A DNA stretch of 64,000 nt. It comes from a virus. The position numbers and the translations under genes were made by a program. The stretch lies in IMG/VR virus record IMGVR_UViG_3300013137_001826, positions 4,668 to 68,667 of that record; one strand, written 5' to 3'. Below are positions 57,082-57,238 of the stretch, in pieces (the stretch's first letter is position 1; each line of letters begins with the position of its first letter). Below the pieces are notes generated by a model. That model saw only the letters and a program-made list of their open reading frames with translations, was not told the origin of the DNA and made no database searches.

Positions 57082-57160
57082 GGTACGCTCGGAGGGATTC
57101 GAACCCACGTTTTCATCCGCTATGCGTCTCCGGTTTCGAGGACCGGGCCAATACGAGCGC
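57082..57160 (-). tRNA. Rearranged tRNA-Arg(TCG)-like, D-loop displaced
   Basis: Acceptor, anticodon and T arms intact; 7 nt where the D arm should be; 21-nt variable region. Confidence 0.65.
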
Positions 57161-57161
57161 G

Positions 57162-57238
57162 TGTGTTCCAGGTGGGATTCGAACCCACATTCGTCCATTA
57201 TGCGCACTCGGTTTCGGAGGCCGGGTCAATACTGGAAC
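57162..57238 (-). tRNA. Rearranged tRNA-Arg(CCG)-like, D-loop displaced
   Basis: Same architecture as its neighbour. Confidence 0.65.

Follow-up and report, generated by a model that had tools for sequence, protein, structure and literature searches.

What kind of RNA is encoded by a pair of adjacent, tRNA-sized genes in which the acceptor, anticodon, and T arms follow one another in the usual order and the D-loop motif is displaced? The question is raised by a 64-kb stretch of DNA (here called the window) taken from a 68.7-kb IMG/VR virus record whose completeness is estimated at 26%. The window encodes a T4-type portal, a DNA polymerase B fragment, and a ClpB-like ATPase, along with an RNA-ligase-domain protein, a NADAR protein, and a TROVE/vWA (Ro60-like) protein, the last accompanied by a Y-RNA-like element. 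On its minus strand, an array of tRNA genes extends over positions 44140-63624, with 24 genes called by ARAGORN and 24 matches in the Rfam gathering scan. The two genes in question, elements A and B, lie within this phage tRNA array on the same strand with 3 nt between them, and a canonical tRNA-Lys(CTT) gene (57249..57322, minus strand; found by both ARAGORN and Rfam) lies 10 nt upstream of element A. A promoter and terminator scan of positions 56300-58300 yielded nothing useful, and the ORF downstream of A and B, used as a query for related loci, retrieved no relatives. The comparisons presented here suggest that A and B are probably Arg tRNA genes (CCG and UCG), part of a conserved class from phage and metagenome DNA with a permuted D domain, and that their products are likely to be working adaptors.

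Element A, a putative permuted tRNA-Arg(CCG) gene, occupies positions 57164..57238 of the minus strand (75 nt, counting the discriminator A at 57164), and element B, its putative tRNA-Arg(UCG) counterpart, occupies positions 57084..57160 of the same strand (77 nt, again counting the discriminator, an A at 57084). Both consist of a 7-bp acceptor stem, a 7-nt linker, an anticodon arm, a D-loop-like segment, and a T arm, which confirms, on the minus strand, the segment order given by an earlier reading made without database searches (the sequence-only reading). The acceptor stem is paired throughout (7/7) in each, as GTTCCAG/CTGGAAC in A and as GCGCTCG/CGAGCGT, with a G1·U72 pair, in B. Nothing longer than the linker, TA plus five nucleotides, separates the acceptor and anticodon stems. 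In A it reads TATTGAC (57225..57231, minus strand) and would comprise U8, A9, an analogue of the 3' D-stem strand, and nucleotide 26; in B it reads TATTGGC (57147..57153, minus strand) and occupies the place of the D arm. The anticodon CCG of A (57215..57217, minus strand) is presented in the loop CTCCGAA, with U33 and A37, on a stem with 3/5 standard pairs (C·A at 27:43 and at 31:39); among the 48 sequences of the main family described below, A alone has a nonstandard 31:39 pair (alignment columns 19:27). The anticodon arm of B reads CCGGT/CCTCGAA/ACCGG, with the anticodon UCG at 57137..57139 (minus strand), a fully paired stem (5/5), and C33 instead of U, the sole such case among the 48 main-family loops, the other 47 having T33.

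The segment that follows the anticodon arm measures 18-21 nt in A and B and contains the motif CGCATA-RY-GGA, with CGCATAATGGACGAAT present in A and CGCATAGCGGATGAAAAC in B. Within it, the relocated D segment of A (57194..57203, minus strand) is composed of GCA, the candidate analogue of the 5' D-stem strand, and TAATGGA, which supplies analogues of A14, A15, G18, G19, and A20. That of B (57116..57125, minus strand) is composed of GCA and TAGCGGA, in which the G after TA is the position-15 analogue, the C at 57109 being the position-48 analogue. The sequence-only reading had likened the displaced segment to the D loop of the canonical tRNA-Arg(CCT) of the window (58885..58813, minus strand), and the likeness holds: AATGGACAGAAT forms the D loop and 3' D-stem strand of that tRNA, and GGA is kept in both A and B. 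The T arms are GTGGG/TTCGAAT/CCCAC in A (57172..57188, minus strand; 5/5 paired) and GTGGG/TTCGAAT/CCCTC in B (57092..57108, minus strand; 4/5, with U·U at 50:64), the U·U of B being shared by 10/25 sequences of an alignment of divergent members (alignment A2). The T loop of the family is of the TTCRAAT type, and both A and B conform to the TTCRANY pattern by which membership was judged. With the two C·A pairs and the linker A for G in A, and C33 and the U·U in B, the two genes are both among the more deviant members of their family.

These features place A and B largely beyond the reach of existing tRNA finders. When run on the whole window, ARAGORN called neither of them despite calling 24 tRNAs, and both are likewise absent from the Rfam gathering scan of the whole window. 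In a scan of 501 bases, A reached 30.4 bits against the tRNA family (gathering threshold 29), but only because the model passed over both the D arm and the anticodon arm as local gaps. In that scan, B gave only a weak tRNA-Sec match (21.3 bits against a threshold of 47) and no tRNA match; beyond such weak tRNA matches, no family of Rfam 15 matches either element. Parsing by hand did not recover a cloverleaf of the same length, as no register gives A or B a D stem in the linker or a different anticodon arm. Another candidate, a D-like hairpin at the site of the variable loop, formed by CAT...ATG or by GCAT...ATGY over T-stem nucleotides 49-50, was rejected on two grounds: T-stem covariation links 49 to 65 (one A:U case) and 50 to 64, and B breaks the pairing. 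Taken singly, the two sequences fold undistinctively (z scores of -0.65 and +0.36), with no stable extra helix. The match to the family is nonetheless far beyond chance: a covariance model built from the 48 main-family homologues (R1) scores A at 76.4 bits and B at 85.8 bits, against at most 23.3 bits for the canonical tRNAs of the window. Members of the family score 43-97 bits with this model, and canonical tRNAs of the other phage records searched score at most 31 bits. The failure of standard detection is general, with ARAGORN calling just 4/74 family members, 2 of them with the wrong identity, and Rfam missing most of them.

Pattern and covariance-model searches of phage and metagenome contigs recovered 88 distinct sequences that share the permuted layout, so that the covariance search proposed along with the sequence-only reading did find homologues that keep the arrangement. 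The search patterns required TA.TG.C, CGCATA, GGA, and GGTTC, and much of the conservation of these motifs is therefore by construction; the pattern scans left the acceptor and anticodon arms free. In the metagenome pattern scan at least 115 loci were matched, and among those listed, 69 have an R1 match of at least 73 bits and 46 are chance matches. The pattern CGCATANNGGATGAAA, for which the matches listed were mostly due to chance, was discarded. A blastn search of the window region against a phage collection returned mostly ordinary tRNAs, along with one 61-nt match to the phage LilMartin. After structural filtering, the main family, which includes A and B, comprises 48 distinct sequences. 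Weaker relatives detected by R1 come from two huge phages and from one contig (L006), and a further pattern scan uncovered a second family with the Ile anticodons GAT and TAT; when the Ile scan was repeated with relaxed constraints, it matched 56 loci, from which 31 sequences were parsed, including one canonical tRNA as a false positive. The viral contigs with homologues include ones of 508 kb and 121 kb, and the cultured carriers include the Streptomyces phages Daubenski, Mildred21, LilMartin, Bmoc, and others, and the Rhodococcus phage NiceHouse.

Like the window pair, several homologues occur as tandem permuted genes (CCT+TCT in L186/L255, CAT+TCG in L141, Ile TAT+Arg TCT in L306, Ile GAT+TAT in L308, Ile GAT+Arg TCT in W01, and further cases in L249/L252 and on the L006 contig). 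A tRNA called by ARAGORN on the same strand lies nearby, within the short flank examined, for 53/74 members. Comparison of the 48 main-family sequences reveals strong constraint on the stems. Standard pairs fill 97.8% of the 864 stem cells, against a mean of 68.9% in shuffles (0/500 as high), and sliding the 3' partner by 1-3 columns lowers the pairing to 35-49%. Changes on both sides are seen at 15/18 stem pairs, including all 7/7 pairs of the acceptor stem, where 98.8% of the cells are paired. The T stem is likewise 98.8% paired and the anticodon stem 95% paired, with A or G at position 37. Thus, the claim of the sequence-only reading that the paired acceptor stems reflect selection rather than decay gains strong backing from compensatory changes in three stems across 48 homologues.

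These data bear directly on the notion of decaying copies, in which A and B, or just A, would be relics of rearranged tRNAs or assembly artifacts devoid of function. Some features of A are what decay might produce: it is the sole CCG member of the family, has the weakest anticodon stem, and scores below B with R1, and the truncated T-arm copy that adjoins a homologue in L002 indicates that tandem copies can indeed decay. However, compensatory changes are seen in every stem of the family, members are present in the genomes of cultured phages, and A itself retains an intact acceptor stem (7/7) and T stem (5/5). An assembly artifact is further countered by the presence of the window stretch, at 98% of the sampled words, in five DNA runs labeled as lake-water metagenome, which may include the source sample of the window; no RNA run was listed as containing the window, an outcome that is uninformative as to expression. 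Taken together, these observations make decay or artifact a very improbable account of the two genes.

A more searching question is what has become of the D arm. The simplest answer would be that A and B are working tRNAs that merely lack it, as in animal mitochondria, with a flexible linker and an enlarged variable loop and with neither a D-stem analogue nor a 15:48 contact in the main family. Indeed, on the 48 main-family sequences, the helices predicted by RNAalifold are limited to those of the acceptor, anticodon, and T arms, with a D hairpin absent throughout, and the single-sequence folds of A and B are ordinary. The segment after the anticodon arm, which ranges from 18 to 24 nt across the family, likewise has no hairpin of its own according to RNAalifold. 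The candidate helix between the linker and the relocated segment is also short in the main family: it has 96/144 standard cells and just 2 uninterrupted standard pairs, and it consists of U:A and G:C only, plus a G·G or a bulged purine followed by C:G. As the linker T-G-G/A-C is invariant opposite G-C-A, covariation cannot test this helix within the main family, and the two TGAC linker variants (A and L188) have no compensating change.

The relatives with the same layout speak against such a D-armless state. In the divergent members, the last base of the linker is preceded by three nucleotides that complement the three lying immediately 5' of the TA[AG]..GG motif. Across the 39 members outside the main family, 110/117 cells of this D-stem analogue are paired, against a shuffle mean of 71.3 (standard deviation 4.0; 0/2000 as high as 110), and the pairing is realized in 16 helix variants, including CGA:TCG, CAG:CTG, CAG:TTG, CGG:CCG, CGT:ACG, CAT:ATG, CTC:GAG, CCT:AGG, CCC:GGG, TCC:GGA, CCG:CGG, and ACC:GGT. 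On 25 divergent members, RNAalifold predicts the linker helix unprompted, with compensatory changes at all three pairs (first pair, CG 24 and UA 1; second pair, GC 10, AU 9, and CG 6; third pair, AU 8, GC 4, GU 3, CG 2, UA 2, and other 6). Covariation in the class as a whole thus extends to four helices. The first pair is C:G in the divergent families and U:A in the main family, a switch that is consistent with a D-stem analogue in the latter as well; for A and B themselves, the putative helix rests on homology with these relatives.

A second line of evidence comes from the analogues of positions 15 and 48, which are A:T in 56 and G:C in 32 of the 88 sequences, with no exceptions (0/88), a result that is partly by construction because G15 was fixed in the Ile patterns and C48 in the first Ile scan only, which also required T20. 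In the main family, where the search left both positions free, 47 sequences have A:U and one, B, has G:C, with no mismatch (alignment columns 42:55). When position 48 was left free in a scan, C48 was recovered in 31/31 parsed sequences, a count that includes the canonical false positive, and the pairing also holds, free of construction, in the relatives found by the covariance model. The retention of the T loop and of GG likewise sets these RNAs apart from the D-armless tRNAs of mitochondria. Given the covarying helix, the C:G to U:A switch, and the unbroken 15:48 pairing, the reading in which the main-family members simply lack a D arm appears unlikely.

The evidence instead favors a permuted D domain, and here the alternative topology proposed by the sequence-only reading is both supported and sharpened: the D loop appears to have taken the 5' D-stem strand with it. 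By the standard numbering of tRNA, the segments would run in the order 1-9, 22-26, 27-43, a spacer, 10-21, a tail ending in 48, and 49-76, the spacer before the 10-21 segment being 3-5 nt long (10 nt in one sequence). This amounts to an exchange of two segments, in which the 5' D-stem strand and D loop would trade places with the 3' D-stem strand and anticodon arm. In the proposed fold, the acceptor and T arms would be canonical, and the 3' part of the linker would pair with the nucleotides just upstream of the D-loop motif to form a short D-stem analogue extending the anticodon stem, just as the D stem does in the canonical L. In place of a hairpin loop, the D-loop motif would then form an open strand that runs on to the T stem. 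Such a strand could still offer A14, R15 to pair with Y48, G18-G19 for the elbow with the T loop, and position 20. The tertiary layers of tRNA comprise U8:A14:A21, 15:48, and 18:55/19:56, and it is from these established layers, rather than from a computed structure, that we infer that the L shape could be kept with a changed strand connectivity.

This organization can be set against those of several known systems. With the canonical bacterial and phage tRNA-Arg (RF00005), A and B share the 7-bp acceptor stem, the 5-bp T stem, the TTCRAAT loop, U8 A9, the GG-A motif, anticodons for Arg, a place within a phage tRNA array, and a similar length (75-77 nt). The family also has the 5-bp anticodon stem with its 7-nt loop, from which A departs by its 3/5 pairs and B by C33. 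The two genes differ in having no D hairpin between nucleotides 9 and 26 and in carrying the D-loop motif between the anticodon and T arms. Algal permuted tRNA genes place the 3' half ahead of the 5' half, and circularization followed by cleavage restores a normal tRNA. These genes, known from red and green algae (cited in PMC10085705), resemble A and B in having a segment order different from the canonical one. However, the acceptor strands of A and B are in normal order and two internal segments are swapped; with successive segments lettered from the 5' end, the order becomes A-C-B-D. As an internal swap of this kind cannot be reversed by rotation, the mature RNA must itself be permuted.

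In D-armless mitochondrial tRNAs, such as tRNA-Ser(AGY) and the tRNA-Ser(UCU) of Ascaris, a connector replaces the D arm (PMC7609411), and A and B likewise have a short connector between the acceptor and anticodon stems. The same source describes these mitochondrial tRNAs as having lost elements of the D-loop/T-loop elbow and as having short variable regions (PMC7609411), whereas the permuted tRNAs are phage encoded, keep GG, R15:Y48, and a canonical T loop, and have the D-stem strand relocated. Class II tRNAs (Leu, Ser, and Tyr) also have a long stretch between the anticodon and T arms, but they keep the D arm and form a self-contained hairpin arm, whereas the permuted segment appears to pair with the 5' linker instead. 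A and B thus fall outside the D-armless, class II, and circularly permuted classes of tRNA. The marks of a noncircular permutation are observed in the divergent Arg and Ile members (in the linker helix, with its 110/117 paired cells, and in 15:48), the helix positions of the main family being invariant. The closest parallel in principle is the hammerhead ribozyme, whose natural noncircular permutation is presented as the first reported in natural RNAs, in an account whose accessible text does not treat tRNA (PMC10085705). There too, helices and tertiary contacts are kept and connectivity is changed noncircularly, in a different class of RNA. The tRNA-like structure of TYMV and the bacterial Y RNA YrlA are tRNA mimics with permuted topology (PMC11472068); they attain a tRNA-like L via a different backbone order, as the permuted tRNAs would. 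As far as the accessible text of that source goes, they are mimics within larger RNAs and not decoders, in contrast to the permuted tRNAs, which are free-standing, tRNA-sized, and equipped with anticodon loops.

Are these RNAs then decoders? The search left the anticodon arms free, and still the anticodons of the 88 sequences are confined to Arg (55 sequences: TCT 24, TCG 17, ACG 7, CCT 6, and CCG 1), Ile (32), and a single CAT. All those of the main family specify Arg (TCT 20, TCG 16, ACG 6, CCT 5, and CCG 1, the last being A). The identity set of bacterial tRNA-Arg comprises A20, C35, U/G36, and A/G73 (PMC9976931). C35 with G or U at position 36 is present in all 55/55 Arg-type members, including A and B, and the base after GG is A in 6/6 Arg members found without that constraint, the other 49 coming from a pattern that required GGA. 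The Ile members have T (27) or G (5) at this position. The discriminator of the Arg members varies (A 28, T 16, and G 11; A in both window copies), and that of the Ile members is A in 32/32.

In three phage records, the permuted Arg anticodons are absent from the canonical set called by ARAGORN, and the two sets are thus complementary: the window has canonical cct, gcg, and tct with permuted TCG and CCG; a record that is 97% complete (G001) has canonical acg, cct, gcg, and tct with permuted TCG; and W01 has canonical acg, cct, and tcg with permuted TCT. In the 20 kb of Mildred21 examined, cct is the sole annotated canonical Arg tRNA, and three permuted Arg genes are present, of which TCT is annotated as "tRNA-OTHER," TCG as "tRNA-Phe(gaa)," and ACG not at all. 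In the NiceHouse and Daubenski records, a CDS is annotated over the permuted gene. The filling of gaps is provisional for the window, as the record is 26% complete and the rest of the phage genome could include canonical TCG or CCG genes. It is also not general, because in G001 and W01 the permuted Ile genes are redundant with canonical gat and tat genes. Replacement at a single locus is suggested by the related phage Jay2Jay, in which the tRNA-Gly(gcc) that precedes the permuted gene of Daubenski is followed instead by a canonical tRNA-Arg(tct). The two Arg genes are 91% identical over query positions 31-86, a stretch that runs from the anticodon stem past the T arm and on into the 3' flank.

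These repertoires also weigh on the view that the RNAs are made but never charged, and serve not as adaptors but, through their tRNA-like surfaces, as decoys or sponges for host tRNA nucleases or other tRNA-binding defense proteins, or as partners of Ro60-like proteins in the manner of Y RNAs. The unusual anticodon arms of both window copies (C33 in B and two C·A pairs in A) would suit such a role, as would the redundancy of the permuted Ile tRNAs with canonical ones. The window also encodes the RNA-ligase-domain protein and the TROVE/vWA protein with its Y-RNA-like element, and the tRNA region of Mildred21 contains a Ro-like gene. This gene neighborhood makes a tRNA-centered conflict plausible, as context rather than as evidence. 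However, a decoy needs neither an A at position 20 nor an acceptor stem followed by CCA, which is encoded after the discriminator in 11/74 members. It also needs neither anticodons that are exactly those missing from the canonical set nor the capacity to trade places with a canonical tRNA-Arg(tct) at a single locus, as in Jay2Jay and Daubenski. Moreover, the anticodon loops are otherwise canonical, with T33 in 47/48. A pure decoy role, one of the two functions put forward in the sequence-only reading, is therefore disfavored by these sequence comparisons, and we consider it quite unlikely.

The anticodon restriction, identity elements, repertoires, locus replacement, and encoded CCA point to real decoders, and the reading of A and B as working adaptors can be developed as follows. 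The RNAs would be cut from the phage tRNA array and receive CCA, and the host ArgRS would charge them via A20, C35, and G36. A, with its CCG anticodon, would read CGG, and B, with UCG, would read CGA and CGG, codons beyond those of the canonical tRNA-Arg(GCG, UCU, and CCU) of the window. ArgRS and IleRS both belong to subclass Ia (PMC9976931), and as all the specificities found use class Ia synthetases, only these enzymes may tolerate the new core. A more speculative extension, which takes up the evasion of defenses suggested by the sequence-only reading and which we regard as conceivable but doubtful, is that these are active, noncircularly permuted, L-shaped tRNAs in which the permutation is itself an adaptation. 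It would hide the Arg, Ile, and CAU tRNAs from a nuclease of the phage that depletes host tRNAs, or from a host defense, that reads the canonical D arm, and would leave them acceptable to class Ia synthetases.

All carriers of known nature are phages, the metagenome contigs being of unknown origin. In one genome each of 185,579 prokaryotic species, the main-family pattern yielded 29 matches, none of which is a member (regular-expression search; R1 at an E value of 1e-8). A search with R1 of 151 genomes of one actinobacterial class gave no member, with a best score of 36 bits and with the match checked, at 35.9 bits, being a canonical tRNA-Glu; the set includes two unpublished genomes (G030 and G042), and the result is unchanged without them. 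R1 found nothing in three further cellular genomes. We found no description of phage tRNAs with a relocated D arm or a permuted order in open-access papers or on bioRxiv, and earlier work elsewhere is possible. The accessible text of a review of noncanonical tRNAs does not mention phages (PMC7609411), and a 2024 abstract presents the known bacterial tRNAs as all being canonical cloverleafs (PMC11551756).

As annotation pipelines miss or mislabel the permuted genes, current phage tRNA repertoires, and the analyses of codon adaptation built on them, are incomplete. The permuted scaffold may also be of interest for the design of orthogonal tRNAs. Since several carriers are cultured phages of Streptomyces and Rhodococcus, the question can be tested now. 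More generally, the known exceptions among tRNAs lose arms, whereas here the arms are rearranged. If the proposed fold is correct, it would represent the second natural noncircular permutation of an RNA, after the hammerhead ribozyme. It would also distinguish enzymes that read backbone connectivity from those that read shape, among RNase P, the CCA-adding enzyme, ArgRS and IleRS, EF-Tu, the ribosome, modification enzymes, and anticodon nucleases. Above all, it would mean that the L-shaped adaptor of translation can be built with another strand topology.

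Several public phage records misannotate or pass over permuted tRNA-Arg genes, in which the D-loop segment lies 3' of the anticodon arm. The Streptomyces phage Mildred21 (MF155946.1; locus L327) carries permuted tRNA genes at 13368-13443 and 16858-16934; its gene 169, labelled 'tRNA-Phe(gaa)', is in fact a permuted tRNA-Arg(TCG), an error of the public record, and the permuted tRNA-Arg(ACG) that follows gene 185 has no annotation there. Comparable errors place a protein-coding gene over a permuted tRNA-Arg gene, namely CDS 178 of the Rhodococcus phage NiceHouse (tRNA at 368-442 of locus L139) and gene 135, a 'hypothetical protein', of the Streptomyces phage Daubenski (tRNA H41).

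Certain stem irregularities recur in this family. The commonest first acceptor pair is G1.U72, seen in 24 of the 48 sequences of the main-family alignment, and the T-stem pair 50:64 is a U.U mismatch in 3 of these 48, the window's UCG copy (B) included, and in 10 of the 25 divergent Arg/Ile members. Partial or deviant forms are also seen. At locus L002, a second T arm (about 2960-2990, minus strand) stands directly 3' of a permuted tRNA-Arg(TCG) without the remainder of any tRNA, and may be what is left of a tandem partner that has disappeared. Four viral loci (L340, L369, L371, and L383) have in common a permuted-type body with the anticodon TCT, which matches copy B in its position-15 analogue (G), position 48 (C), and position 20 (A). 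No acceptor pairing was found in these four; the copy may be broken, or its ends may be built differently.

Other unusual tRNA-like elements have a different organization. The huge phages G001 and W01 each encode a tRNA-Cys(GCA)-like gene (L294:4764-4846 and L297:10193-10275, respectively), neither called by ARAGORN, with an enlarged D loop containing an additional small hairpin. They further share a conserved tRNA-like element (L293:5333-5414 and L296:1418-1496) that opens, 3' of the acceptor strand, with CTCATTGGCGTGACCAG; its anticodon loop reads CCA (Trp) in G001 and is shortened in W01. Within the window, an element at 63283-63368 (minus strand) combines a normal D arm, the anticodon loop CTCATAA (CAT), and a variable arm of ~15 nt (CTC-GAAA-GAG); it is possibly a class-II-like tRNA(CAU). 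It scores 16 bits with the covariance model of permuted tRNAs, and whole-window searches yielded neither an ARAGORN call nor an Rfam gathering-list entry for it.

The window's protein-coding genes include one for an RNA ligase domain protein of 635 aa (11459-13366, minus strand) and a DNA polymerase B fragment (21157-22785, plus strand). Because a TnsA-like endonuclease ORF (24661-25173, plus strand) lies about 1.9 kb downstream of this fragment, the arrangement suggests a split or invaded polymerase gene. A further ORF encodes a Ro60-like TROVE/vWA protein (54310-55938, minus strand) and is followed on the same strand by a tRNA-like element (53780-53990). This element matches the Rfam tRNA model with 50.5 bits, over model positions 4-67 only, received no ARAGORN call in the whole-window scan, and could form a long stem from its TTTTGGG...CCCAAAA flanks. 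The tRNA region of Mildred21 likewise holds a Ro-like gene. The window's element and its neighboring Ro protein look like a phage Y RNA of the YrlA-like kind with its partner.
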